Source: Patescibacteria group bacterium
GTDB lineage: Bacteria > Patescibacteriota > Patescibacteriia > 2-01-FULL-39-33
DNA: 64,000 bases
Assembly: GCA_038065695.1 (NCBI GenBank)
Contig: JBBTQN010000016.1
Coordinates: 11,738-75,737 of the forward strand
Reading direction: 5' to 3'
This document shows, in pieces, positions 1,960 through 59,888 of this stretch. How positions within the stretch are numbered: the stretch's first letter is position 1; every line of letters starts with the position of its first letter. A program made the position numbers and the translations under genes. The notes under the pieces were generated by a model. The model did not search any database, had not been told where the DNA came from, and worked only from the letters and a program-made list of their open reading frames with translations.

Positions 1960-2340
1960 AACCTCCTCCTCCGTCATTCCCGTCCCCGCCTTCGCGAGGA
2001 TAAACTCCAGCGGGAATCCAGACTAATTCCAATTAAATCCGTGACTTTATCCTGGATCCCGGCTTTCGCCGGGATGACGGAAAAAAAAGGAGAAAAAATG
2101 TGGGACAAAAAATCCCCGCGTAATAAGACATCTTATCACGCGGGGGAACAAAAGGGGTCAAAGGGGTCAGGACTGCCCGCCTGCTTCGCTATGCGAAGCA
2201 TTGCGGGCAGGCTTGCGGACGGCCGCGAAACGCCAAAAGTCGTAGAAATCATCCCCAAGCCAGCCGAGGTCCAAGACGCGCCTAGCACTGCCCCCGTCGA
2301 GGCAGGCGAAGCGACGACCGCCGACGGCACTACGCCAAGT
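1960..2340. repeat. GC-rich hairpin repeat region (tcattcccg...cgggaatccag; tcctggatcccggctttcgccgggatgacg; gcccgcctgc...gcgggcaggc)
   Basis: Local GC is far above that of flanking DNA and several perfect stems are present. The plus-frame translation gives the repeat-derived peptide SWIPAFAGMT. Confidence 0.6.
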
Positions 2341-2877: not shown

Positions 2878-3025
2878 CTTCTCACTCCTTATTTTTATGG
2901 CCTGCCACCTGTCCAAAGCCCATCTCCGGACTTATGGCTTACCATTATCCGCGTTAAAAGGACAACGAGTCATTATAGCAACCTTCGATAATTCTGTCAA
3001 ACTGCTATTTAGCGCATAACAAAAC

Positions 3026-3165
3026 GCGTAGAGACGTTGTGCTGCAACGTCTCCGGAGCCGTAGCATCGCTACGGCTCTACCTAACAAAACCGCCCTTCA
3101 GCGGTTTCATTGTAGAGACGCGGCGGTGCCGCGTCTCAAAAGACGCCCCAGCGGGGCGTCTGCTA
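3026..3165. repeat. cluster of five consecutive GC-rich hairpins (agagacgttgtgctgcaacgtctc; gagccgtagcatcgctacggctc; aaaccgcccttcagcggttt; gagacgcggcggtgccgcgtctc; agacgccccagcggggcgtct)
   Basis: Perfect inverted repeats read directly. They belong to the gtagagacgc...gcgtctctac family, also seen at 27728-27755, 45568-45630, 54927-54995 and 60215-60244. Confidence 0.8.
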
Positions 3166-4969: not shown

Positions 4970-4989
4970 ATATTTATTAAATTATTAAA

Positions 4990-6165
4990 TTATTTTCCGA
5001 CGAAAATTATTTTCTCTTTGGTTCTCTTGGATATCTCAATGGTCTTTTTTATCATCTCCTTGGTAATATCGCGACCGCCCAAACCCATGATAACACCGGT
5101 GATTTTCGCTTGGCTTTGGCCATACAAAGCGCGCTTTATCTCGGTCGCTAAAATCCCTTCAGTGCCGAGTGAAATCGATTTGTCCAGCACGGCGATATTT
5201 TCGGCCTTAACCAACAATTTAATAATTTCATCGTCCGGAAACGGCCGGAAAGCGGTGATTTTTAAGATACCGATTGTGTTTTTGTGTTTTTGTGTTTTTG
5301 TGTTTTTGTGATATTCATCCACCGCCTCTTTCATTGTCCCTAAAACTGAACCCATCGCCACGATGACGGTCTTGGCGTTTTTATCGCCATAATATTCCGC
5401 CAAGTTAAGCGGCCGGCCGAATATTTTTTTAAAATTATCCATTTCCTTTTTAATCTCCGCTTTTGAGGCGGCCAAATCATCGTGCAAACTTTTCCTGATT
5501 TCAAAATAATGTTCCGGCGTGACCAGCGGCCCGAAAGTCAAAGGATTTTTTACATCCAATTTTTCCGAGGACTGATAAGCCGGCAAATATTTTTTGATTT
5601 TTTCCGCGGCTTCAATTTCCACCGGCTCCACCACATGAGTGAGAATAAAGCCGTCCAAATTCACCATCACCGGAAGCTCCAATTTCTCCCCCACTTTATA
5701 AGCCAAGATATGTAAGTCACAAACTTCCTGCACGGTCTCGCCAAAAAGCATTATCCAGCCGGCGTCGCGCATAATCATCACGTCCTGCTGATCATTCCAG
5801 ATATTTATCGGCGCCGAAACTGAACGATTGGCGTCGGTCATAACCACCGGGAGCCGCATGCCCGCCAGATTATAAAGCACTTCAGCCATAAGCAGTAACC
5901 CCTGCGAAGAAGTGGCGGTATAAGTCCTCACCCCGGCCGCCGACGCGCCCAAAACGATGGAAGCCGCGGCGAATTCGCTTTCCGCCCGCACATATTCAAA
6001 ATCCGCCTTGCCGGCCTCGCTGTTGGGCTGGCCATCGGCTTTCAGCTTGGCCAGTTCTTCCACAATATGCGTCTGCGGCGTGATGGGATACGCAGAAACC
6101 ACACCTACGCCGATATTATTAATTGTCTCGGCAATCGCCCGACTGCCTTCTAATATTTTTTTCAT
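4990..6165 (-). CDS. porA: pyruvate/2-oxoacid:ferredoxin oxidoreductase alpha subunit
   Basis: Reads MKKILEGSRAIAETINNIGVGVVSAYPITPQTHIVEELAKL..., which is the POR alpha domain architecture. Confidence 0.9.
   Translation of the reverse strand: MKKILEGSRAIAETINNIGVGVVSAYPITPQTHIVEELAKLKADGQPNSEAGKADFEYVRAESEFAAASIVLGASAAGVRTYTATSSQGLLLMAEVLYNLAGMRLPVVMTDANRSVSAPINIWNDQQDVMIMRDAGWIMLFGETVQEVCDLHILAYKVGEKLELPVMVNLDGFILTHVVEPVEIEAAEKIKKYLPAYQSSEKLDVKNPLTFGPLVTPEHYFEIRKSLHDDLAASKAEIKKEMDNFKKIFGRPLNLAEYYGDKNAKTVIVAMGSVLGTMKEAVDEYHKNTKTQKHKNTIGILKITAFRPFPDDEIIKLLVKAENIAVLDKSISLGTEGILATEIKRALYGQSQAKITGVIMGLGGRDITKEMIKKTIEISKRTKEKIIFVGK
5275..5310. repeat. 8-bp microsatellite (gtgttttt)x~4.5 inside porA coding sequence (encodes KNTKTQKHKNT in frame)
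   Basis: Direct reading of tgtgtttttgtgtttttgtgtttttgtgtttttgtg. Confidence 0.85.
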
Positions 6166-14919: not shown

Positions 14920-14945
14920 TAATCCGTCATAAAATTTAAACTAAT

Positions 14946-14986
14946 AAAAATCGTCCCCCACCTTTAAAGGTGGGGGACGATTTTTT
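14946..14986. terminator. bidirectional rho-independent terminator between convergent rnj and the downstream minus-strand gene
   Basis: The hairpin aaaaatcgtcccccacc-tttaaa-ggtgggggacgatttttt has A- and T-runs on both sides. Confidence 0.8.
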
Positions 14987-14996
14987 AAGGTTAAGA

Positions 14997-16034
14997 TTAC
15001 GGCTGTAAAATATCTTCCGTCCGGCCATTAATGGAAATAATCACCTTTTTGACGGTGGAAAATTGTTTCAGGGTCTGGATGATTTGGGCGCTGATCGCCG
15101 CCACGCGGCAAGAACCGCCGACTTGATACTCTAATTGCTCGTCAAAATCCGCTTTAGCCGTGCCACTCACAATCGTCACCTTTTGCAGTTTGACTCCCGG
15201 ATTAATATTCGTCTCATAACCGGCTTGCGCTTCGTCCTGGGTCAATTCGCCGGCTAAAAGAAGTTCTAAAGCGGCTTTGGCCGGCGTTTCGGTCTTAGCT
15301 ACAACCCGGTCAACCGGAAAAACTTTATTGCAAGTCATCGCCGGATCTAATTTGGTGTTATTAAAATAGATTTTTAATTTAGTCGTGTCGCCCAAGTTCA
15401 ATTTTAGCGGAACGGAAATTTTATCCGTATCCGAACCGTCCTTGGCCGAGGCCTGATAAACTTCCAAAACCACATCCGTGCTGGTCGGCGTCTTGGTTAG
15501 ATAATTTATTTCTTTGGTAAAAGCGCCGAACTGGCCCAGGTCCGGGCTTTGCGCCATCGCCGTGGAAGAAAATAAAACATCGCCGTTTCCGTCTTTCAAC
15601 CTGAAACTGACCACGCTCTCAAATACCCGGGCGATACCCTCCACTTTGAACGGCAAATTTACTTCACCGCCCGCGAAGGGATAAAAAACTGAAATGTTCT
15701 TGCCCGGCTGGCATTCATTCCTGAAATATGACCACTCTTCGCAAGCGCTGCCGTCGGAAAAAAAGCAAACGCCGTACTCGCCGCCATTGGGGTTGGTTTT
15801 AATCGTTGAATTTCCGCCTTGTTTCAAGCAAAAAGCCGAAGCAGGATTGGCGATGGCGGTGTTGCCGCAACCGGTGATAGGCATCGGCGAGACCGGGTTG
15901 CCGTGTTTGACCCATTCGCCGTTTTGGCAAAGCCAAGTGTCTTCCTCGCCGCGCAAAAAGACGAGACCGACGATGACCGCTAAAATGATAATGACCATTG
16001 ACAGCCCTAAAATAATAACGGTTTTCTTGTCCAT
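14997..16034 (-). CDS. membrane-anchored protein with DUF333-like Cys-rich domain and GerMN/Gmad2-like domains
   Basis: An N-terminal TM segment is followed by CQNGEW...CGNTAIANPASAFCLKQGG...GVCFFSDGSACEEWSYFRNEC and a C-terminal GerMN-like region. Confidence 0.5.
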   Translation of the reverse strand: MDKKTVIILGLSMVIIILAVIVGLVFLRGEEDTWLCQNGEWVKHGNPVSPMPITGCGNTAIANPASAFCLKQGGNSTIKTNPNGGEYGVCFFSDGSACEEWSYFRNECQPGKNISVFYPFAGGEVNLPFKVEGIARVFESVVSFRLKDGNGDVLFSSTAMAQSPDLGQFGAFTKEINYLTKTPTSTDVVLEVYQASAKDGSDTDKISVPLKLNLGDTTKLKIYFNNTKLDPAMTCNKVFPVDRVVAKTETPAKAALELLLAGELTQDEAQAGYETNINPGVKLQKVTIVSGTAKADFDEQLEYQVGGSCRVAAISAQIIQTLKQFSTVKKVIISINGRTEDILQP

Positions 16035-20310: not shown

Positions 20311-20420
20311 GACATTTTCAAATGTCATCCCGAGGGAGAAGTGCCGAAGGCGCGACGACCGTGGGGATCCCATGGGATTGCCACGTCGCTCCGCTTACGC
20401 TTCGCTCCTCGCAATGACGG
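20311..20420. repeat. GC-rich hairpin repeat (tgtcatcccgagggag...gggatcccatgggattgcc...cctcgcaatgacgg)
   Basis: GC-rich with perfect stems. It shares its terminus (gggattgc...cctcgcaatgac) with the element at 29221-29285. Confidence 0.65.
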
Positions 20421-24087: not shown

Positions 24088-24112
24088 AAATTTAGTGGTT
24101 ATGAATTAAATT

Positions 24113-24226
24113 CTTCCCCCTCCTTGTCTTAAGGAGGGGGTTGGGGGAGGTCTTAAAATAAATTTTATTTAAGACCCCTCCGTCCCGCTTGGCGGGACAC
24201 CTCCCCTTGAAACAAGGGGAGGATTT
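24113..24226. repeat. GGGGAGG-family composite palindromic element (three hairpins)
   Basis: The sequence is ccccctccttgtcttaaggaggggg-ttgggggagg-tcttaaaataaattttatttaagacc-cctccgtcccgcttggcgggac-cctccccttgaaacaaggggagg. Confidence 0.8.
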
Positions 24227-25438: not shown

Positions 25439-25575
25439 AAAAATAGTTAATTATTTTACTGTTAATTTTTACTACCCCCCCCCACAAATCTACGAATCAT
25501 TTACAAATCTACAAATTACAAATAATTATTTGTAGTATTTATAAATTCGTAGTGGGATTTGTAGATTTGCGGGGG

Positions 25576-27006
25576 TTAGCTCGCCATTTCGGTGTCAAAA
25601 CCTTCCTCGGTTTGGATCCCCTTTTCCAATTGAATATGCGCTTCTTTCAAGGTTTTTTTGGAAACCACATTGGGCGCGTCCACCATCAAATCGCGGCTGT
25701 CGCCGGTCTTGGGGAAGACGATGACTTCGCGGATGTTGGACTCGTTTTGCAAAATAGACATTATCCGATCCATACCCGCGGCAATGCCACCGTGAGGCGG
25801 GGCGCCAAATTCAAACGCTTCCAATATGTGACCGAAGCGATTCTGGATTTCCTCTTCTTTGAGGCCTAAAAGCTTAAAAATTTTTTTCTGAATATCTTGC
25901 CTATGGATCCTAATGGAGCCGCCCCAAATCTCGTTGCCATTTAACGCCAAGTCATAAGCGTAAGCGCGCCATCTTTCCGGTTCATCTGGATATTTTTCCA
26001 TATCTTCTTTTTGAGGCATGGTAAAAGGGTGGTGGTTGGCGACCAACTTCTTGGCCGTCTGGGAATGGCTGAACATCGGCGTGTCAATAACCCAACAGAA
26101 AGCGAGCTCGTCCGGATTATTTTTATCGTCCCTTAAATCCGGTTTATCCGAACCGTATTTCTCCATTGCCTCGGCGTAGGACAAGCGCGGGAAAGGCGTT
26201 TCTTTTATTTTTTTGCCCGGATACAACTCTTTAATTATTTTTATCATCAGTTCCTCGGTCAAATTCAAAACATCTTCCTGCTCAACAAAACTCATTTCCA
26301 CATCAATCTGGGTAAATTCGGCTTGACGGTCGCCTCGAGTGTCCTCATCGCGGAAACATCTCGCGATTTGGAAATATTTTTCGGCGCCGGCGACCATCAA
26401 AAGCTGTTTGAATTGCTGGGGCGACTGGGGCAAAACATAGAATTTACCGGGCCATAGGCGGGCGGGCACGATGAATTCGCGCGCGCCTTCCGGCGTGCCC
26501 TTGGTCAGAATCGGCGTTTCAATTTCCAAAAATCCTTTTTCATCGTAAAAATCACGCGCTAATTTAATAACTTTATAGCGCATCACCATGTTAGCGGTCA
26601 TTCTCTCGGTGCGTAAATCCAAATAGCGGTATTTGAGGCGAAGCTCTTCATTCACACCGGCCGTGCTCTTATCCAACTCAAACGGCGGGGTTTTGGCTTC
26701 GTTCAAAATCTCCAGACTGGTGGCGAGCATTTCCACCGTGCCTGTGGGAATCTTATCATTGATCATATCAGCCGGCCGCTTATTAATCTGACCGGTGATT
26801 TTGACCACGAATTCACTCCTTAATTTTTCTGCCAATTTATAAGCTTCCTTATTTGAAGGAATAAAAACCACCTGCATCAGGCCGCTTCGGTCGCGAAGGT
26901 CAATAAAAATAATTTTGCCGTGATCCCTCCGGCCATGGACCCAGCCGGAAATCGCCACCTCCTTTCCCGCTTGGCTTACTGCCTCCAGCACTGATGTTTT
27001 TGACAT
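25576..27006 (-). CDS. aspS: aspartate--tRNA ligase (compact archaeal/eukaryal-type, no GAD insertion)
   Basis: Has an N-terminal OB fold, FYVLPQSPQQFKQLLM, FQIARCFRDED (motif 2) and GGIAAGMDRIMSIL (motif 3). Confidence 0.75.
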   Translation of the reverse strand: MSKTSVLEAVSQAGKEVAISGWVHGRRDHGKIIFIDLRDRSGLMQVVFIPSNKEAYKLAEKLRSEFVVKITGQINKRPADMINDKIPTGTVEMLATSLEILNEAKTPPFELDKSTAGVNEELRLKYRYLDLRTERMTANMVMRYKVIKLARDFYDEKGFLEIETPILTKGTPEGAREFIVPARLWPGKFYVLPQSPQQFKQLLMVAGAEKYFQIARCFRDEDTRGDRQAEFTQIDVEMSFVEQEDVLNLTEELMIKIIKELYPGKKIKETPFPRLSYAEAMEKYGSDKPDLRDDKNNPDELAFCWVIDTPMFSHSQTAKKLVANHHPFTMPQKEDMEKYPDEPERWRAYAYDLALNGNEIWGGSIRIHRQDIQKKIFKLLGLKEEEIQNRFGHILEAFEFGAPPHGGIAAGMDRIMSILQNESNIREVIVFPKTGDSRDLMVDAPNVVSKKTLKEAHIQLEKGIQTEEGFDTEMAS

Positions 27007-29220: not shown

Positions 29221-29285
29221 TTCTTTTTTTTAGATGGGATTGCTTCGGTCGTCCCGCCAAGGCGGGACTCCCTCGCAATGACATT
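29221..29285. repeat. GC-rich hairpin repeat (gggattgcttcggtcgtcccgccaaggcgggactccctcgcaatgac)
   Basis: Has the stem cccgcc-aa-ggcggg and shares its termini with 20380-20420. Confidence 0.65.
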
Positions 29286-30738: not shown

Positions 30739-30919
30739 AAATATAATTTTAGTTTTTAATTTTTAAATAAATTCTAATTTTTAATGTTTAAAAATTAAAA
30801 CATTAAAAATTATTTAAAAATTAAAAATTGGAAATTAAAAATTTACAAGACACTTTTATTTTACTTTATTCTTCTTAAAAAAGAAAGCCCCTATTTAGGG
30901 GCTTCAACTGATTACCGAG
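30739..30919. repeat. AT-word palindromic spacer ('ttaaaaatt' words)
   Basis: The palindrome is taatttttaatgtttaaaaattaaaacattaaaaatta. Confidence 0.6.
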
Positions 30920-35514: not shown

Positions 35515-35560
35515 ATCTTAATTATTCGTATATTCGTAATTATTCGCGATTCGTAGAGTA

Positions 35561-38921: not shown

Positions 38922-39020
38922 ATTATTTTAGCTTATTAGCTGGTTAGCTTATTAGCTTGTTAGGATTCTCTTTTTATTTTTCCTAAGAAGCTAATAAGCT
39001 ACAAGCTACAACCTAATTAA
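38922..39020. repeat. AT-word palindromic spacer (ttagcttattagctggttagcttattagc ... gctaataagctacaagctac)
   Basis: An inverted repeat of the word 'gcttattagc' lies between rpsS and rplB. Confidence 0.65.
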
Positions 39021-41878: not shown

Positions 41879-42260
41879 ATTTTATATGATACCAATATAC
41901 GAATGTTTACCAATGATACGAATGTTGCTTTGGGAATAACTTAGAATGATTAGTAGCATTGGTATGATTCGTATATTAGTATCATATTTTATTTGTATAA
42001 AAAAACCTGGCCACATACCTTAAGCCAGATTCAACTTGTCGCGCCAAAAAGCACTACTTGTTAAATTCTATATCTTAATTTAGTATGTCGGTTTTCCCTT
42101 TTTAATCGATGTCGATTATGGAGGTTTTCCCCTTTTTGCTTCTATAATTACGCGGGAACTTTCTCCATTTTCTTCATTGATTATAATTCTCTACGAATTA
42201 CGAATTTTTACGAATTTACGAATATTTGTATATTCGTACCGATTCGTAATTCGTAGAAGG
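41879..42260. other. 382-bp structured spacer between rpsJ and rplC (word palindromes; terminator-like hairpin ctggcttaaggtatgtggccag + T-run on minus strand at ~42002-42040)
   Basis: Direct reading. There are no convincing ORFs, and the region contains direct repeats of ggttttccc(c)ttttt. Confidence 0.5.
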
Positions 42261-44459: not shown

Positions 44460-44514
44460 AGGATTTTAGGTTACCCACGAATCTACAAATCTTGCTACGA
44501 ATTTACAAATCGAT

Positions 44515-44612
44515 TTCCCCTCCTTTCTAAGGAGGGGTTAGGGGAGGTTATGAAAGTCACGAAAATTGGCGTGAGTTTCAAAACCCCTCCTAACCTCCCC
44601 TTTGAAAGGGGA
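44515..44612. repeat. GGGGAGG-family composite palindromic element (hairpin-arm-hairpin-arm-hairpin)
   Basis: The sequence is cccctcctttctaaggagggg-ttaggggagg-ttatgaaagtcacgaaaattggcgtgagtttcaaaa-cccctcctaa-cctcccctttgaaaggggagg. Confidence 0.85.
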
Positions 44613-44720
44613 GGAATTTAACGAATATTCGTAAATTCGTAAAAATTCGTAATTCGTAGTTATTTTTATCTAAATTTAGCTAATTTTTATAAATAAAATA
44701 TTAATAATTTCTCTACGGGG

Positions 44721-50460: not shown

Positions 50461-50700
50461 CGATGAAGTTGAAAGTTTATAAAGTCTGTAAAGTCAAAAG
50501 TCTGACGACGACTTTATTTTATATTAACATTATTGACTTATTTTGACAAATATGATAAGATTATATCCATAAACAAATATCTTGAGAATTTTTAATTTCC
50601 AATTTTTAATTTTTAAATAATTTTTAATGATTTAATTTTTAAAAATTAGAAATTAGATCATTATTTAAAAATTACAAAATTAAAAATTAAAAATTTCATT
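50461..50700. repeat. AT-word palindromic spacer ('tataaagtc' then 'ttaaaaatt' words)
   Basis: Direct reading. Confidence 0.6.
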
Positions 50701-52701: not shown

Positions 52702-53589
52702 TTATTTAATCAACTGCCACTTTACTCCATTACTCTCAAATACTATATCTCCATTCCTATCCGTCCTAAAAATCTTCACCCCCATCTCCTCCAAATAATA
52801 AATGGCGCGGAAAGAGGGCAGGCCGTATGAATTGTCAGCGCCGACTTCAATGACGGCGTATTGGGGCTGGACAACGGCCAGAAATTCTTGGCTGTTGCCG
52901 TTGGAAGAGCCGTGATGACCGACTTTCAAAAGGTCGGCTTTGACGAGCTCGGGAGAGCTGGAAGCCAGCTTTTCTTCCTGCTCAAAATCGCCCATAAAAA
53001 GCGCGGTTGAGGAAACATAAGACAAGCGGAAAACAATTGACGAATTATTAAGATTATCAAAACGCCGACCCTCAATATTCTCTAAAGGCCAGAGTATTTC
53101 TATCGTCGTGGAGGCGTCCAGCGCGATTTGTTTTTGGCCGTCCACAATTTCCACGGGGATATTTTTTTCTTTAATTAAGTTTAAAAATTCAATATAATCG
53201 CCGGCAGTGTGGCTCGCGCCGGTCATCATAACTTTTTCCACCCGATATCTTTTTAGCACTTCCACCAGGCCGGTGACATGATCGGCATGCGGATGGGTCA
53301 AGATGACGAGCTCCAAATCATTGTCGGTGAGAGGCAGATATTTGCCCAATTTTTCCAAAACCGAATTATCCGGCCCGCCGTCAACTAAAATGTCGTCGCC
53401 TTTGGCCGTCCGGATGAGCTCGCTGTCGCCTTGGCCCACGTCAAAGAAGTAAATTTTTAATTCTGGTTGCGGGTTGGAAGCGGTATCAGATAATACCTGC
53501 GGCTGGCGAGAATTATAAAAAATTAAAAAAACAAGAAAACAAGAAAATAAAATGACAATAAATATAATTTTTGTTTTTTTGTTAAACAT
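52702..53589 (-). CDS. membrane-anchored MBL-fold hydrolase (ComEC C-terminal lactamase_B-like domain as separate ORF)
   Basis: An N-terminal TM segment is followed by LILTHPHADHVTGL and KVGHHGS. Confidence 0.65.
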   Translation of the reverse strand: MFNKKTKIIFIVILFSCFLVFLIFYNSRQPQVLSDTASNPQPELKIYFFDVGQGDSELIRTAKGDDILVDGGPDNSVLEKLGKYLPLTDNDLELVILTHPHADHVTGLVEVLKRYRVEKVMMTGASHTAGDYIEFLNLIKEKNIPVEIVDGQKQIALDASTTIEILWPLENIEGRRFDNLNNSSIVFRLSYVSSTALFMGDFEQEEKLASSSPELVKADLLKVGHHGSSNGNSQEFLAVVQPQYAVIEVGADNSYGLPSFRAIYYLEEMGVKIFRTDRNGDIVFESNGVKWQLIK

Positions 53590-53607: not shown

Positions 53608-55152
53608 TTAATTTTTTAATTTCTTATTCGTATTATACACCCAAACCGCAATCACCCCGTAGAGCGCGACCACCAAAAAAATATTTAGCCACTCTATTTG
53701 GAGGCTTGAGAGTGGCACTTTTGACAAGCGATCAACCACCCAAAGAAAATAACCAGCGGCAAAATAGCTGACATAACCCAAGAGTTTTCCGAGCGGCAAA
53801 AAAACCGCGCCAACGACCGCGTTGATAAAGCCCCAAACCATTAAAAACGGAATGGTGGGCAAAATTAAAATATTGGCCAGAAAAGAAGAAAGAGAAAGCC
53901 GATGAAAATAAAAAATTATCAAAGGTAAGGTCATTATTTGGGCGGCCAAGGTCATAATAAATATTTCTTTGACTTGCCAAAATTCGGGCAGGCGGCGGAA
54001 ATATTTTTCCAAAATAGGAACGAGATAAATCAAGCCGATGACCGCCATAAAAGAAAGCTGAAAACCGACGTCAAAAATCAAAACTTTCGGGTTGAAGGCG
54101 AGCATCACGGCGGCGGCAAAAACAATCAGATTAAGCGAGTTATTCAGCCGGCCGACTTTCTGGGCATACAAGACGAGGATGCCCATAATCGCCGAGCGGA
54201 CGGCCGAAGCCGGCGCGCCGATCATGACAATATAAAAAACAATGATGGCGGCGATGGCCCAAAACGCCTTTGGCCGAGATATCCCGAGGCCAATCGCGAC
54301 GCTCATTAAAACCATGGAAATAATGGCAATATGCTGGCCGGAAATGGCGATGATATGGGTGACGCCGGTTTGGGAAAATTTATCCATCCACGCCGGCGAC
54401 AAACCGCCGCGGTTGTTAAAAAGCATCGCCTGAAGAAGGGCGTTTTGCGGCTCTCGAATGGAGAGGGAGAGGCCATTAGACAAAAATTTTTTCGCTTTTA
54501 ATACATTAATTATTAGACCCCTCCCCAACCCTCCCCTTGAGACAAGGGGAGGGGGATTTGTTTTAGAAATCTTCGCGAACGAACACACCGAATAAATATC
54601 ATATCGGGCTAAATATTTTTCATAATCAAAATCATCGAACTTTTCCGGTTTTTTTAGTTGGCAAGAAACACCGACTTCATCACCGTATTGATATTTAGGA
54701 TAAAGCGGTAAGGTCAATAAAACTTTGCCGCTAACCGGTATTTTACCCGCCAATTTTGAATTAATAGTTATTTTCTGCTTATCAATCCGTTCGTCAATAT
54801 CGGCGACAACACCGGAAAAGTTGGTTTCTCGGCCGTTATAATAGTAAATTTTCGTTTCGTCGGAAAAATCAGGCAGAGAAATTTGATAACGCCAAACGCC
54901 GAGGAAGAAACAAAAAATAAAAAATATTAAGACGCCCCACCGGGGCGTCTCTACAACGGGCAAGCCCGCCTTCGCTAAAGCTACGGCGGGCAAGGAAAAA
55001 ATCAGCCCGAGAGCTGATATTAAAATTAAACAAAAGATAATAAACGAGTTAAAAGAAAAAAAACTGGAAACACCGACGCCGACAATAAAAAATAAAAGAC
55101 AAAATAAAAATATTTTTGATTTGGAATGGGTAATTCTCTGCCAATAATTCAT
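53608..55152 (-). CDS. comEC: DNA internalization competence protein ComEC/Rec2 (DUF4131 + competence domain) carrying two in-frame palindromic-repeat insertions
   Basis: Reads GVWRYQISLPDFSDE...YDIYSVCSF (DUF4131) and HIIAISGQHIAIISMVLM (competence domain). Repeat DNA at 54511-54565 and 54927-54995 is translated in frame. Confidence 0.75.
   Translation of the reverse strand: MNYWQRITHSKSKIFLFCLLFFIVGVGVSSFFSFNSFIIFCLILISALGLIFSLPAVALAKAGLPVVETPRWGVLIFFIFCFFLGVWRYQISLPDFSDETKIYYYNGRETNFSGVVADIDERIDKQKITINSKLAGKIPVSGKVLLTLPLYPKYQYGDEVGVSCQLKKPEKFDDFDYEKYLARYDIYSVCSFAKISKTNPPPLVSRGGLGRGLIINVLKAKKFLSNGLSLSIREPQNALLQAMLFNNRGGLSPAWMDKFSQTGVTHIIAISGQHIAIISMVLMSVAIGLGISRPKAFWAIAAIIVFYIVMIGAPASAVRSAIMGILVLYAQKVGRLNNSLNLIVFAAAVMLAFNPKVLIFDVGFQLSFMAVIGLIYLVPILEKYFRRLPEFWQVKEIFIMTLAAQIMTLPLIIFYFHRLSLSSFLANILILPTIPFLMVWGFINAVVGAVFLPLGKLLGYVSYFAAGYFLWVVDRLSKVPLSSLQIEWLNIFLVVALYGVIAVWVYNTNKKLKN
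54511..54565. repeat. GGGGAGG-family palindromic element inside comEC ORF (encodes [15 protein letters not shown])
   Basis: The sequence is cccctccccaaccctccccttgagacaaggggagggggatttg. Confidence 0.85.
54927..54995. repeat. gtagagacgc-family hairpins inside comEC ORF (encode LPAVALAKAGLPVVETPRWGV)
   Basis: The sequence is ttaagacgccccaccggggcgtctctac followed by cccgccttcgctaaagctacggcggg. Confidence 0.8.
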
Positions 55153-55195
55153 TATTTTTTGAATTACGAAATGACATGATTTATTTATATCTAAA

Positions 55196-55300
55196 TTCAG
55201 AAATTGCCTTATTTTCGCCGCGAGGACTGTTTGAGCCCCGCCTTGGCGGGGCGAGTTCCGCAGCCAGAAAATAAGGCAATTCCTGAATTTAGTAATTCGC
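55196..55300. mobile_element. MITE-like element: 25-bp perfect terminal inverted repeats flanking a GC-rich hairpin core
   Basis: Reads ctaaattcagaaattgccttattttc...gccccgccttggcggggc...gaaaataaggcaattcctgaatttag. Confidence 0.7.
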
Positions 55301-55309
55301 AGATATTTA

Positions 55310-56396
55310 TTATTCCTTAATTTTTCCTCTTAAATAGCTCTCCACAAAATCATCAATCTCCCCGTTCAAGACGCGGTCCACATCGGCAGTTTCGTGTTCG
55401 GTCCGGTGATCTTTGACTAATTTATACGGATTGAGGACATAAGAACGCGCTTGATTGCCCCATTCGGCTTTCTGATAGTCCCCTTTCATCACCTTTACTC
55501 TTTCGCCTTCCTCGGTTTCATAATATTTTAAAAGTTTTGCCTTCAAAATCCTGATGGCGCTCTTCTTGTTTTGGAGCTGGGAGCGTTCGTTTTGGCATTT
55601 GGCGGCGAGGCCGGTGGGAAGGTGAGTGATTCGTACCGCCGAGTCAGTCGTGTTGACGCTCTGTCCGCCGTGACCCGAAGCGCGCATCACTTCAATTTTT
55701 AAATCCTCGTCTTTGAGCTCAATCTCCTTAATCCCCTCCGATTCCGGCAAAACCTCCACCAAAGCGAATGAGGTGTGGCGCATTTTTTCCGCGTCAAACG
55801 GCGAAATGCGCACCAAACGATGGACGCCATTCTCGGATTTTAGCCAGCCGTAAGCCCAGCGGCCGCTGATTTCTATCGTCGCGCTCTTTAGTCCCGCTTC
55901 CGCGCCCGGCGTTTCATCCACCACCTTCGCCTCAAAATTGTGCCGCTCGCAAAACCTCAAATACAGCCGCCGGAGCATTTGCGCCCAGTCCTGCGCGTCC
56001 ACCCCGCCGGTGCCGGCGTGGATGGAGACGACCACGCTTCCCTCGTCATAACGCCCGGAAAATAAAACCAAGAATTCCAATTCTTTGAATTCTTGGATTA
56101 GTTTTGACAGTTTTTTTCCAATTTCTTCCGACAGGCCGCTGTCATCCATCTGGGCCAGCTCGCCGAGTTCATCAACTTCATTTTTTAAATTTTCCCAACT
56201 CGCCAAATCTGATTTTAAATTTTCATACCTTTGGCTGATGACCCTGGCTTTTTCCGGCTCCGCCCAAAAATCGGAGTGAGAAATTTCCTTCTCCAATTCG
56301 GCGATTTCCTTTTTTACTTTATCCAAGTCAAAGCAACCTCCAAATTCCAGAGATTTGACGCTTCAAATCTTTAATTTGACTCGATGTCTCATTCAT
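55310..56396 (-). CDS. prfB: peptide chain release factor 2 with programmed +1 ribosomal frameshift (CTT TGA C at 56333-56327, SD-like GGAGG 3 nt upstream)
   Basis: ORF0 MNETSSQIKDLKRQISGIWRLL stops at TGA 56330-56328. The +1 frame continues DLDKVKKEIAEL...RISPFDAE (SPF motif)...GGQSVNTTDSAVR...GQH-like. Confidence 0.85.
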
Positions 56397-56858: not shown

Positions 56859-57554
56859 CTATCTGACAACACAGTTTTCCACAAACCGACTCGCGAGGTC
56901 GCGAAACTCCGCCATTTCGCCCACCGAAAAACTCGCACCGGTATAATTTTTCTCAATCAATTCGCCTTGGGGCGAAAAATTCTGTAAATAATACGTCTGG
57001 GCGCCGGCAATCAGCTCAACCATTTTGGTCAAATCCTCTTTCTGATGGAATCCTTTAATTAAAGTGCTTCTAAATTCATGGGGCAGACCGCTGTCTCTGA
57101 TAATTTTTACGCTTTCTTTAATCGCTTCTTCAGCCACGGCCTGGCCGCAAATTTCTAAGTAACGGCCCAAAGGCGCTTTGATGTCCATCGCCAGATAATC
57201 AATCAGCCCCGCCTCAATTAATTTTTTCAAAACATCGGGCAAAAGCCCGTTGGTGTCCAATTTGACCGAATAATCGATTTTTTTTATTTCTGCTAAAAAT
57301 GCCGCGAGATCGGCTTGGATGGTCGGCTCGCCGCCGGAAATCACCGCGCCGTCCAGATATTTTCTTCTTCTGTTTAAATATTCAAAAACATAATCTTCCG
57401 GCATTGGGTTTCCGGCTGAAATGAGCTCGGGCAAAACCAAATTCGGATTATAACAAAAAGGACAGCGCATATTACAACCGCTGGTAAATATGATCGCTGC
57501 CACCTTTTGCGGATAATCCAGTAAAGTCACTGGTTGTAATCCGCCGATTTTCAT
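56859..57554 (-). CDS. nrdG: anaerobic ribonucleoside-triphosphate reductase activating protein (radical SAM)
   Basis: Reads TSGCNMRCPFCYNP. Confidence 0.85.
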   Translation of the reverse strand: MKIGGLQPVTLLDYPQKVAAIIFTSGCNMRCPFCYNPNLVLPELISAGNPMPEDYVFEYLNRRRKYLDGAVISGGEPTIQADLAAFLAEIKKIDYSVKLDTNGLLPDVLKKLIEAGLIDYLAMDIKAPLGRYLEICGQAVAEEAIKESVKIIRDSGLPHEFRSTLIKGFHQKEDLTKMVELIAGAQTYYLQNFSPQGELIEKNYTGASFSVGEMAEFRDLASRFVENCVVR

Positions 57555-57573: not shown

Positions 57574-57729
57574 TCAATCGTTTAAGACGCCGCTCTTTTC
57601 AAAAGTCTTCCGGTCGGAAAATTCCGATTGTTTGCCCGGATTCCACTGGTCCACCGGCCGAATGTAGCCGACGACGCGGGAATAAACCTCGCAGAGCTGG
57701 CGTTTCGCTGTTGTTTTGTCACCTTCCAT
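57574..57729 (-). CDS. nrdD: NrdD glycyl-radical C-terminal module encoded as separate 51-aa ORF
   Basis: Translates to MEGDKTTAKRQLCEVYSRVVGYIRPVDQWNPGKQSEFSDRKTFEKSGVLND, which matches the class III RNR C-terminal RVxGY...WNxGKxxE glycyl radical motif. Confidence 0.7.
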   Translation of the reverse strand: MEGDKTTAKRQLCEVYSRVVGYIRPVDQWNPGKQSEFSDRKTFEKSGVLND

Positions 57730-57842: not shown

Positions 57843-59888
57843 TTAAAGCGGCAATTTATCCTCTTGCTGTCTGACAAAACCGATCTCCTCGTCACAAACT
57901 GGACAATAGCGATGTTCGCCATTAAGGTAGCCGTGCTTAGGACAGACCGAAAAAGTCGGCGTCAAGGTGTAGTAGGGCAAACGAAAATTCTCCGCGATTT
58001 TTCTGACCAATTTTTTGGTGCTTTCAATATCAGACAACCGCTCTCCTAAAAAGCCGTGGATGACCGTGCCGCCGGTGTACTTAATTTGCAAATCATCCTG
58101 CTGTTCCAACACTTCAAAGATATCATGGGAAAAATTGACCGGCAAATGAGTGGAATTGGTGTAATAAGGCGCCGCGCCCTTTTCCCGGTAGGCCTCTTCG
58201 TTGGCCACGATAATGTCAGGATAAAGCTCTTTGTCCTTTTTGGCAAATCGGTAGGTCGTGCCTTCCGCCGGCGTCGCTTCCAGATTGTAAAGCTGGTTAT
58301 CTTCTTCTTGATAGCGCGCCAGCCGTTCCAGCATAAAATCAATCACTTTAAGCGCGAATTCCTTGCCTTCGGGCGTGGAAAGCGGCCGATTCATAAAATT
58401 CAAAACCGCTTCATTCATCCCGTTGATGCCAATCGTGTTGAAATGATTGCGCCAGTATTCGCCAAATCGCTCTTTGATGTCGCCAAGATAAAAACGGCTA
58501 TAAGGATAAAGCCCGCTTTCGGTAAAATTTTCCAAAATTTTTCGCTTTAATTCCAAGCTTTGGCGGGATAAATCCATCACTTGACCGAGGCGACTGAAAA
58601 AACCGTCTTGGGTTTTGGCGAGATAGCCGATGCGAGGCAAATTGATGGTGACGACGCCGATGGAGCCGGTCAGCGGATTAGCGGCAAAAATCCCGCCGCC
58701 GCGCTTCCGAAGCTCCCGATTATCCAGCCTCAATCTGCAACACATTGACCTCGCGTCCTCCACTTTCATATCACTGTTGATAAAATTGGCGAAATAAGGA
58801 ATCCCGTATTTAGCGGTCATCTCCCAAATCGGGCTAAGCACTTCATTATCCCAATTGAAATCGCGCGAAATATTATAAGTCGGAATGGGAAAAGTGAATA
58901 CCCGCCCCTTGGCGTCGCCTTCAAACATCACTTCGGCAAACGCCTTATTGATCAAATCCATCTCCGGCTGGAATTCTTTGTAAGTTTCGGTTTGCGGCGC
59001 GCCGCCGATAATAACCGCTTCGTCGGCTAAGGTGGAAGGACACAATAAATCAAAAGTTAAATTACTAAAAGGCGTTTGAAATCCGACTCTGGTCGGCACA
59101 TTCATATTAAACACGAATTCCTGAAGCGCTTGTTTGACCTGTTTGTACTCTAAACCGTCATGGCGGACAAAAGGCGCGAGTAAGGTGTCAAAATTGGCCA
59201 AAGCGACCGCGCCGGCCGCCTCGCCTTGTAAAGTATAAAGAAAATTCACCGCGTGGCCTAAAGCGACGCGGAAATGCTTGGCGGGCTTGCTCTGGACCTT
59301 GCCGTTCACCCCGCCAAAACCGACTCTTAAAATCGCCTGCAAATCCCAACCGCAGCAATAAACCGCGAGAAGTTGGAGGTCATGGAGATGAATGGCGGCG
59401 CTTACATGCGCTTCTCTGATTTCTGGCGGATAGATCTTATTGAGCCAATAATGCGAGCTGACCGAGGAAGCGACGTGATTATTGAGCCCTTGGAGCGAAT
59501 AAGCCATATTGGCGTTTTCCTTGACCCGCCAATCCAATTGCTTCAAATAGCCGTCAATAACATCATTGGAATTAATCAGTTCTTTCAGTTCCCGAAGCCG
59601 AGCGTGCTGTTCGCGGTAAATAATGTAAGATTTGGCCGCTTTAACCAAATCGGCGTCAATTAAAATCTCCTCCACGATATCCTGAATTTCTTCAATCGCC
59701 GGAATTGAGCGAGGATGGAATTTGCTATTGAGTAGCCGCATCACTCGTTCGGCCAATTCTTCGGCCAAAGGCAAATCTTCCCGGCCGACCGCTTTTAGGG
59801 CCTTAAAAACCGCCTGAATGATTTTGTTTTGGTCAAAATCAACAATCCGGCCGTCCCGTTTCTTTACCTGCTTGATTTGGTTTTCCAT
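57843..59888 (-). CDS. nrdD: anaerobic ribonucleoside-triphosphate reductase (class III), ATP-cone + catalytic body + zinc ribbon; lacks glycyl-radical tail
   Basis: Has an N-terminal ATP-cone (VKKRDGRIVDFDQNKI), a catalytic domain and C-terminal CPKHG...CPVC. It ends DEEIGFVRQQEDKLPL without the RVxGY motif. Confidence 0.85.
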   Translation of the reverse strand: MENQIKQVKKRDGRIVDFDQNKIIQAVFKALKAVGREDLPLAEELAERVMRLLNSKFHPRSIPAIEEIQDIVEEILIDADLVKAAKSYIIYREQHARLRELKELINSNDVIDGYLKQLDWRVKENANMAYSLQGLNNHVASSVSSHYWLNKIYPPEIREAHVSAAIHLHDLQLLAVYCCGWDLQAILRVGFGGVNGKVQSKPAKHFRVALGHAVNFLYTLQGEAAGAVALANFDTLLAPFVRHDGLEYKQVKQALQEFVFNMNVPTRVGFQTPFSNLTFDLLCPSTLADEAVIIGGAPQTETYKEFQPEMDLINKAFAEVMFEGDAKGRVFTFPIPTYNISRDFNWDNEVLSPIWEMTAKYGIPYFANFINSDMKVEDARSMCCRLRLDNRELRKRGGGIFAANPLTGSIGVVTINLPRIGYLAKTQDGFFSRLGQVMDLSRQSLELKRKILENFTESGLYPYSRFYLGDIKERFGEYWRNHFNTIGINGMNEAVLNFMNRPLSTPEGKEFALKVIDFMLERLARYQEEDNQLYNLEATPAEGTTYRFAKKDKELYPDIIVANEEAYREKGAAPYYTNSTHLPVNFSHDIFEVLEQQDDLQIKYTGGTVIHGFLGERLSDIESTKKLVRKIAENFRLPYYTLTPTFSVCPKHGYLNGEHRYCPVCDEEIGFVRQQEDKLPL

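Follow-up and report, generated by a model that had tools for sequence, protein, structure and literature searches.

In the window, which is the whole 64-kb stretch of DNA that was analysed, the genes for release factor 2 (prfB; 55310..56396, minus strand) and the DNA-uptake channel ComEC (comEC; 53608..55152, minus strand) are separated by a spacer of 157 nt, and a 102-bp palindrome at 55191-55292 occupies two thirds of this spacer. The prfB product carries PCRF and RF-1 domains, and the comEC product carries DUF4131 and Competence domains. Along the minus strand, the order is nrdD (57843-59888, 681 aa), a radical-SAM activase gene (56859-57554), a 112-aa ORF, prfB, the palindromic element, comEC, and a separate metallo-beta-lactamase ORF (52702-53589), all of them on that strand. 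Since all neighbors are encoded on the minus strand, prfB is the upstream and comEC the downstream gene of the junction, and the element is separated from the upstream prfB stop codon (55310-55312) by 17 nt (spacer, 55293..55309) and from the downstream comEC start (ATG, 55150-55152) by 38 nt (AT-rich spacer, 55153..55190). The original prediction placed the element correctly between comEC and prfB, but the position "upstream of prfB" has to be reversed to downstream, and the suggested role as an attenuator for prfB is excluded because the element follows the prfB stop codon.

The N-terminus of ComEC aligns from the first Met with those of four relatives. It is therefore apparent that the start at 55152 is right and that the 157-nt spacer is extra DNA. 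In prfB, the classical programmed +1 frameshift site, CTT TGA C, was read directly at 56333-56327. It occurs in the context GGAGG TTG CTT TGA C, 22 codons past the ATG at approximately 56396 (56327-56396 of the window), and owing to this frameshift, gene callers give a truncated protein of 328-338 aa. ComEC itself is split into a channel part with the DUF4131 and Competence domains (53608-55152) and a metallo-beta-lactamase part (52702-53589), and the same division was seen in the related contigs L007 and L016. In addition, a 51-aa ORF with an NRDD-family match (57574-57729; 7424-7579 in contig L001) follows the 681-aa nrdD. Conserved in L004, L006, L015, and L016, this ORF may supply the C-terminal part of the anaerobic ribonucleotide reductase as a separate product.

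A repeat finder and a pattern search delimited the palindrome to 55191-55292, which replaces the extent of 55196-55300 given originally. As transcribed from the minus strand, it consists of a 26-nt 5′ arm (55267..55292; CTAAATTCAGGAATTGCCTTATTTTC; 27% GC), a nested 50-nt core hairpin (55217..55266), and a 26-nt 3′ arm (55191..55216; GAAAATAAGGCAATTTCTGAATTTAG), and the two arms pair with each other in the minimum free energy (MFE) structure. The arms, 50 nt apart, are complementary at 25 of 26 positions (96% in the repeat finder); the two terminal repeats of the original prediction are thus both present in the sequence, but they are not perfect. The sole mismatch, A/C at 55201/55282, becomes a G.U pair on the minus-strand RNA. 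The core has a GC content of 72%, compared with 27% in the arms, and within it the apical stem GCCCCGC/GCGGGGC closes a 4-nt loop, CAAG (GCCCCGCCTTGGCGGGGC at 55237-55254), so that the original description of an approximately 50-bp GC-rich core with its own hairpin was accurate. The total stem amounts to approximately 43 pairs. No ORF of at least 40 aa was found across the element.

An arm match at up to three mismatches was obtained in none of 100 dinucleotide shuffles of the window. The predicted RNA MFE was −56.7 kcal/mol for the plus strand (z, −7.6) and −62.4 kcal/mol for the minus strand (z, −10.9), and the DNA fold gave a z of −7.3; no shuffle folded equally well in any of these comparisons. 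After GC regression, the hairpin was the most structured 110-nt minus-strand window of the whole 64 kb in a sliding scan, and its region was the most structured intergenic region (z, −13.5). The ENA contig and L008, a Logan assembly made independently, both contain the same 180 bases, indicating that the hairpin is not an assembly artefact. The inverted repeat is genuine and far beyond chance. On the other hand, the wobble pairs (two G.U on the minus strand versus one on the plus strand) were uninformative as to strand and were discarded as an indicator of which RNA strand is selected; the asymmetry is negligible, and there is no sign of RNA-level selection on the hairpin.

The window belongs to an 86-kb metagenome contig from Hainich groundwater. 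The contigs encoding the closest RF2 proteins were taken as relatives, and nine loci were examined (L004-L007 and L013-L017). The nearest RF2 outside the same strain has an identity of at most 72%, and the named ones belong to Patescibacteria (Buchananbacteria and Falkowbacteria). The synteny nrdD-nrdG-small ORF-prfB-comEC is kept in four relatives with RF2 identities of 67-71%, in which the prfB-comEC spacer is 0 nt (L006), 10 nt (L007), 9 nt (L016), and 8 nt (L017). L015 has a 136-nt spacer, two other genes are inserted after prfB in L013 and L014, and a cluster of GC-rich repeats with a GIY-YIG gene follows prfB in L004 and L005; a comparable hairpin was found in none of these five loci. 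Neither the element nor anything alignable to it was detected at any of the nine related loci. Its absence from the relatives indicates a lineage-specific gain and not a conserved regulator, and a conserved cis-regulatory hairpin of prfB or comEC, for which conservation of the structure at this locus had been named as the sign, was rejected on the basis of these nine loci. Judged by the sequences compared, the hairpin was gained between normally abutting genes in one groundwater Patescibacteria lineage. When the 157-nt spacer is set against the corresponding junctions of L006, L007, L016, and L017 (0-10 nt), which are distant loci with RF2 identities of only 67-71%, 55 nt of the spacer are in excess over the palindrome.

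The element has the architecture of a MITE, or miniature inverted-repeat transposable element: it has 26-nt arms with 25/26 complementarity, is 102 bp long (MITEs stay below approximately 300 bp), and is non-coding. A search for other copies of the arms had been proposed as a check. Neither a second copy nor a solo arm was found in the 64-kb window at up to three mismatches, and blastn-short searches of L001 and L018 gave no second copy; in total, approximately 72 kb of the source contig was covered, corresponding to about 7% of an assumed 1-Mb genome. The GTDB representative genomes, JGI metagenomes, and IMG/VR were scanned by exact matching of a 21-mer common to both arms, a procedure that misses diverged copies. 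These scans gave no copy with two arms. All six matches were single-arm matches in unrelated sequence, as expected by chance. The multi-copy property of MITEs was therefore not shown within the approximately 72 kb of contig or the database scans, and a low copy number is possible. The Logan assembly traverses the element unbroken, yet it stops 200 nt beyond, within a GC-rich hairpin; the unbroken assembly is weak evidence that the k-mers of the element are unique in the Logan sample. No transposase gene was noticed among the scanned ORFs near the element, and no sequence in the rest of the window matches the arms, as the ends of a cognate IS or transposase gene would.

Directly outside the element, the sequences TATAT and TAATT have no shared direct repeat. 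TA is present at 55192-55193 and 55290-55291, and these dinucleotides could be a TA/TA duplication if the outermost C-T-A/T-A-G is split, so that 55194-55289 would be the element proper. However, because TA is its own complement and blends into the inverted repeat, such a duplication is indistinguishable from the palindrome. There is no evidence that the element is currently mobile. The MITE assignment of the original prediction accordingly holds for the architecture and for the insertion relative to relatives with abutting prfB and comEC, and it falls short in the multiple copies, which neither the approximately 72 kb of contig nor the databases showed. Because no other copies were found in the sequences searched and the structure is not conserved in the relatives, neither of the two readings offered originally, a mobile element or a cis-regulatory hairpin, is cleanly right.

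The core of the hairpin resembles a repetitive extragenic palindrome (REP) of the same window. The 14-mer CCCGCCTTGGCGGG of the core recurs at 29253-29266, and the best match of the core in a local alignment against the rest of the window was a TGTC-tagged REP, matched at 29242-29276, with a Smith-Waterman score of 37 compared with 26.6 ± 2.2 (maximum, 32) in 60 Markov-random windows. The blocks GCGAGG, GAG.CCCGCCTTGGCGGG.CGA, and CCG.AGC are common to both. The matched REP (29234-29283, minus strand) is a 50-nt GC-rich palindrome that starts with TGTCAT, ends with ATCCCA, and directly follows the stop codon of map (methionine aminopeptidase). A tail-to-tail pair of TGTC-tagged REPs (20323-20373, plus strand; 20372-20419, minus strand) follows the scpB stop codon, and weaker copies are present at 1972-2022 (plus strand) and 2051-2079 (minus strand). 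The family thus comprises GC-rich palindromes of approximately 50 nt that have (C/T)GTCAT as their head and ATCCCA as their tail and directly follow the scpB and map stop codons, and its outer stem co-varies between copies (ATTGC/GCAAT versus ATCCC/GGGAT). With their (C/T)GTC head, a stem opening with A-T pairs, and a CCA-like tail, these repeats fit the CGTC/TGTC-tagged REP superfamily of Di Nocera et al. (PMC3733652), the members of which have an unpaired (C/T)GTC head, an A-T-starting stem, and a short CCA-like tail. REPs mostly follow coding regions and plausibly act at the RNA level at gene 3′ ends (PMC3733652).

The core of the prfB-comEC hairpin was, however, rejected as a member of this family. 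It is without the invariant GTCAT...ATCC ends of the eight aligned copies and has TTTCGCC...GCAGCCAG instead, and a covariance model (R1) of the eight copies gave it 3.0 bits (E, 0.58 in 301 nt), compared with 41-52 bits for the true copies. The core is thus REP-like and possibly REP-derived, as far as its sequence goes, and stands outside the TGTC-tagged REP family.

No known RNA family was recognised at the junction. Only five tRNAs reached the Rfam gathering score in the window, and a permissive Rfam scan of 54800-55500 gave sub-threshold chance matches only. SRP-like and Y-RNA-like readings of the hairpin were rejected by eye, given the CAAG apical loop and the lack of conserved domain IV motifs. 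No U-tract, which an intrinsic terminator has within 0-2 nt of its stem-loop, follows the whole stem, where the minus-strand sequence is AUAUAAAUAAAUCAUG, or the apical stem, where it is UCAAACAG, and a terminator scan of the window did not report the prfB-comEC hairpin. Canonical hairpin-plus-U-tract terminators are found elsewhere in the window, e.g., at approximately 2100 and at 14933-14998; the proposal that the hairpin is a terminator for prfB is weakened by its lack of the U-tract that these have. A consensus scan detected no σ70-like promoter on the minus strand in the spacer, and a comEC promoter inside or after the hairpin was rejected on this basis. No obvious Shine-Dalgarno sequence was seen in the 38-nt comEC spacer.

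Several other candidates were also rejected. An integron attC site was discarded because no GTTRRRY/RYYYAAC core sites were read at the ends, and a DNA uptake sequence pair before comEC was discarded because the arms are found nowhere else in the window. The intergenic enrichment of TACGAAT heptamers prompted the idea of a streptococcal cin-box, but the comEC spacer holds TTCGTAAT, which is of the wrong form and orientation. A replication origin or terminus was excluded because the cumulative GC skew is monotonic across the window. A literature search with the repeat sequence strings yielded only primer coincidences.

The element is best read under the simplest label, an ordinary one-off intergenic palindrome that is built like a miniature transposon. 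In a fuller form, to which we assign about an even chance, it is a single-copy, lineage-specific 102-bp palindromic insertion in the prfB-comEC junction that is co-transcribed with its neighbors and, if active at all, acts as an intercistronic RNA stem-loop. Since nrdD, nrdG, prfB, comEC, and the metallo-beta-lactamase ORF are on the same strand and no promoter or canonical terminator signal was found between prfB and comEC, the palindrome would be transcribed as part of a polycistronic RNA. This RNA is predicted to fold at the palindrome into a stem-loop of approximately −62 kcal/mol. The stem-loop would disrupt the tight or translational coupling that ancestrally linked comEC to prfB, and it may form a 3′ exonuclease barrier for the prfB portion, as REP/BIME and Correia elements would suggest (PMC2649163 and PMC3733652). 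The uninterrupted 26-bp duplex would be a candidate site at which RNase III binds or cleaves. Overall, prfB expression would be favored and comEC expression lowered relative to prfB, in the manner of REP/BIME and Correia elements. Co-transcription, RNase III cleavage, and an effect on comEC are inferred. As for its origin, the insertion could be an orphan or low-copy MITE-like element, or it could have arisen by a local inverted duplication through template switching that extended a REP-like GC hairpin. Its near-perfect arms may mean that the element is young and neutral.

Four other explanations were weighed against this reading of a single-copy, co-transcribed insertion. The element could be a copy of a genuine low- to moderate-copy, non-autonomous MITE family with its transposase elsewhere in the genome, e.g., an IS630/Tc1-like one that duplicates TA. 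Such a family would account for the 26-bp terminal inverted repeats, the length of 102 bp, the lack of coding capacity, the insertion relative to the syntenic relatives, and the TA at both ends, which is compatible with a TA duplication, and the size and repeat length are like those of short Correia elements (PMC2649163). We nevertheless regard a true MITE as unlikely: neither another copy nor a solo arm is present in the approximately 72 kb of source contig; exact 21-mer matching found none in GTDB representatives, JGI metagenomes, or IMG/VR; no transposase gene was noticed among the scanned nearby ORFs, and the arms match nothing else in the window; the TA duplication is inseparable from the palindrome; the Logan assembly has no break at the element; and the 55 further spacer bases, which are also missing in the relatives, are unexplained by a 102-bp insertion. 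A local origin without any function or mobile family was given a similarly low weight. Template switching is a mechanism of quasipalindrome mutagenesis, and a short GC-rich, REP-like hairpin after prfB may have stalled replication so that a 26-nt flank was copied in inverted form, leaving a young, neutral quasi-palindrome. The single copy in approximately 72 kb of contig, the almost identical arms, which differ by one transition, and the resemblance of the core to a REP elsewhere in the genome are in line with this origin, and the abundance of unrelated, unique, long intergenic palindromes in the genome points to a general process and not to one mobile family. It is made doubtful by the failure of the core in the REP family model and by the lack of any spacer at the junction of the relatives, in which an ancestral arm would have been recognisable.

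An intrinsic terminator of prfB or of an nrdDG-prfB operon, with comEC expressed from its own promoter, is distinctly improbable. A very stable GC-rich stem-loop does start 17 nt past the prfB stop codon, and hairpins without a U-tract are able to terminate transcription in some bacteria. This genome, however, has canonical hairpin-plus-U-tract terminators, and at the junction, as read on the minus strand, neither the apical GC stem nor the complete stem leads into a U-tract, the terminator scan was silent, and the 38-nt spacer contains no promoter-like site for comEC; with spacers of 0-10 nt, the relatives co-transcribe or couple both genes. The least probable reading, which we consider highly speculative, is that the element is the first-sighted copy of a lineage-restricted mobile palindrome of Patescibacteria that is aimed just past stop codons and has kinship with this genome's TGTC/CGTC-tagged REPs. 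Small GIY-YIG nucleases might then mobilise CGTC-type REPs, and the hairpin would be a REP with acquired outer arms. CGTC-type REPs have no known transposase, and this idea is based on the L004 and L005 REPs clustered at the prfB 3′ junction and on the near-identical copies around the GIY-YIG gene. No GIY-YIG gene was found in the window by tblastn.

Among the known systems, the Correia elements (CREE/NEMIS) of Neisseria are the closest in build, with a length of approximately 100-155 bp, a core enclosed by 26-bp terminal inverted repeats, and TA ends, and they are often located between co-transcribed genes. The transcribed CREE hairpin is bound or cleaved by RNase III and alters the expression of neighboring genes (PMC2649163). 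Unlike the present element, which occurs in one copy and has no promoter-like ends, Correia elements number at least 100 copies per genome, their presence or absence among strains has been demonstrated, and they carry IHF sites and promoter-forming ends. In sequence, the element shows no apparent similarity to the Correia repeat. The CGTC/TGTC-tagged REPs share a GC-rich palindromic core just downstream of a stop codon, but they have a GTCAT head, an A-T stem start, and an ATCC(C/A) tail and are without 26-bp AT-rich outer arms. Bacterial MITEs such as RUP, ERIC, and Nezha are likewise small, non-coding, intergenic, and RNA-foldable and have terminal inverted repeats (PMC3184786 and PMC10969869). 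What defines a MITE family, however, is that its copies are multiple and dispersed, that they have target-site duplications, and that a cognate IS exists, and none of this is demonstrable for the element. Rho-independent terminators are also GC-rich stem-loops soon after a stop codon, whereas the stem of the element is far longer (approximately 43 pairs) and has no 3′ U-tract.

The element alone matters little, being one more intergenic palindrome of the REP/MITE type without demonstrable mobility or function. It separates the gene of an essential translation factor from that of the DNA-uptake channel ComEC, and it shows that even a streamlined Patescibacteria genome puts up with, or makes use of, long hairpins between genes that were once coupled. 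ComEC is considered important to Patescibacteria in their scavenging way of life. The surrounding pattern is possibly worthier of attention than the element, namely the structured, mutually unrelated hairpins that approximately half of the intergenic regions carry, TGTC-tagged REPs right after stop codons, and the association with a GIY-YIG gene in a relative. On the minus strand, 17 of the 35 intergenic regions of 50-300 nt fold at z ≤ −5, and the sequences of these regions all differ. Long, unique intergenic hairpins of approximately 100 nt and of unrelated sequence are found at 44511-44620, 24111-24220, 3031-3160, 25471-25580, 41884-41987, 42190-42257, and 38945-39001. The prfB-comEC hairpin is the extreme of this general tendency of the genome, and it is neither an isolated oddity nor a member of one repeated family.

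Further palindromic sequences were observed in the window and in the relatives. The region 3020-3165 contains five tandem GC-rich stem-loops. Within the comEC reading frame, there are three GC-rich hairpins (54529-54553, 54929-54951, and 54958-54995), which encode ...PPLVSRGGLGRG... and ...ALAKAGLPVVETPRWGV... and are located in loop regions of variable length among the relatives. The hairpin at 54929-54951 nearly repeats a hairpin at approximately 3140, and the Logan contig L008 ends inside the third one (54958-54995). These hairpins may be palindromes inserted in frame, as is the case in Rickettsia. The window contains 23 occurrences of the heptamer TACGAAT/ATTCGTA, 21 of them intergenic, and its short direct and inverted arrays often build hairpins, as at 42192-42255, 44627-44658, 35524-35555, 41898-41973, and 25491/25545. 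Palindromic low-complexity tracts of approximately 100 bp and approximately 7% GC with TTTTTAA/AATTAAAAA motifs were found at 30742-30845 and 50583-50698. In L004, a cluster of REPs belonging to the same family as the copies after map and scpB is located directly after the prfB stop codon (4988-5147, 5242-5291, 5627-5656 on the minus strand, and 5805-5854), and two near-identical REPs bracket a GIY-YIG nuclease gene of 97 aa (5323-5616); the same arrangement was seen in L005.
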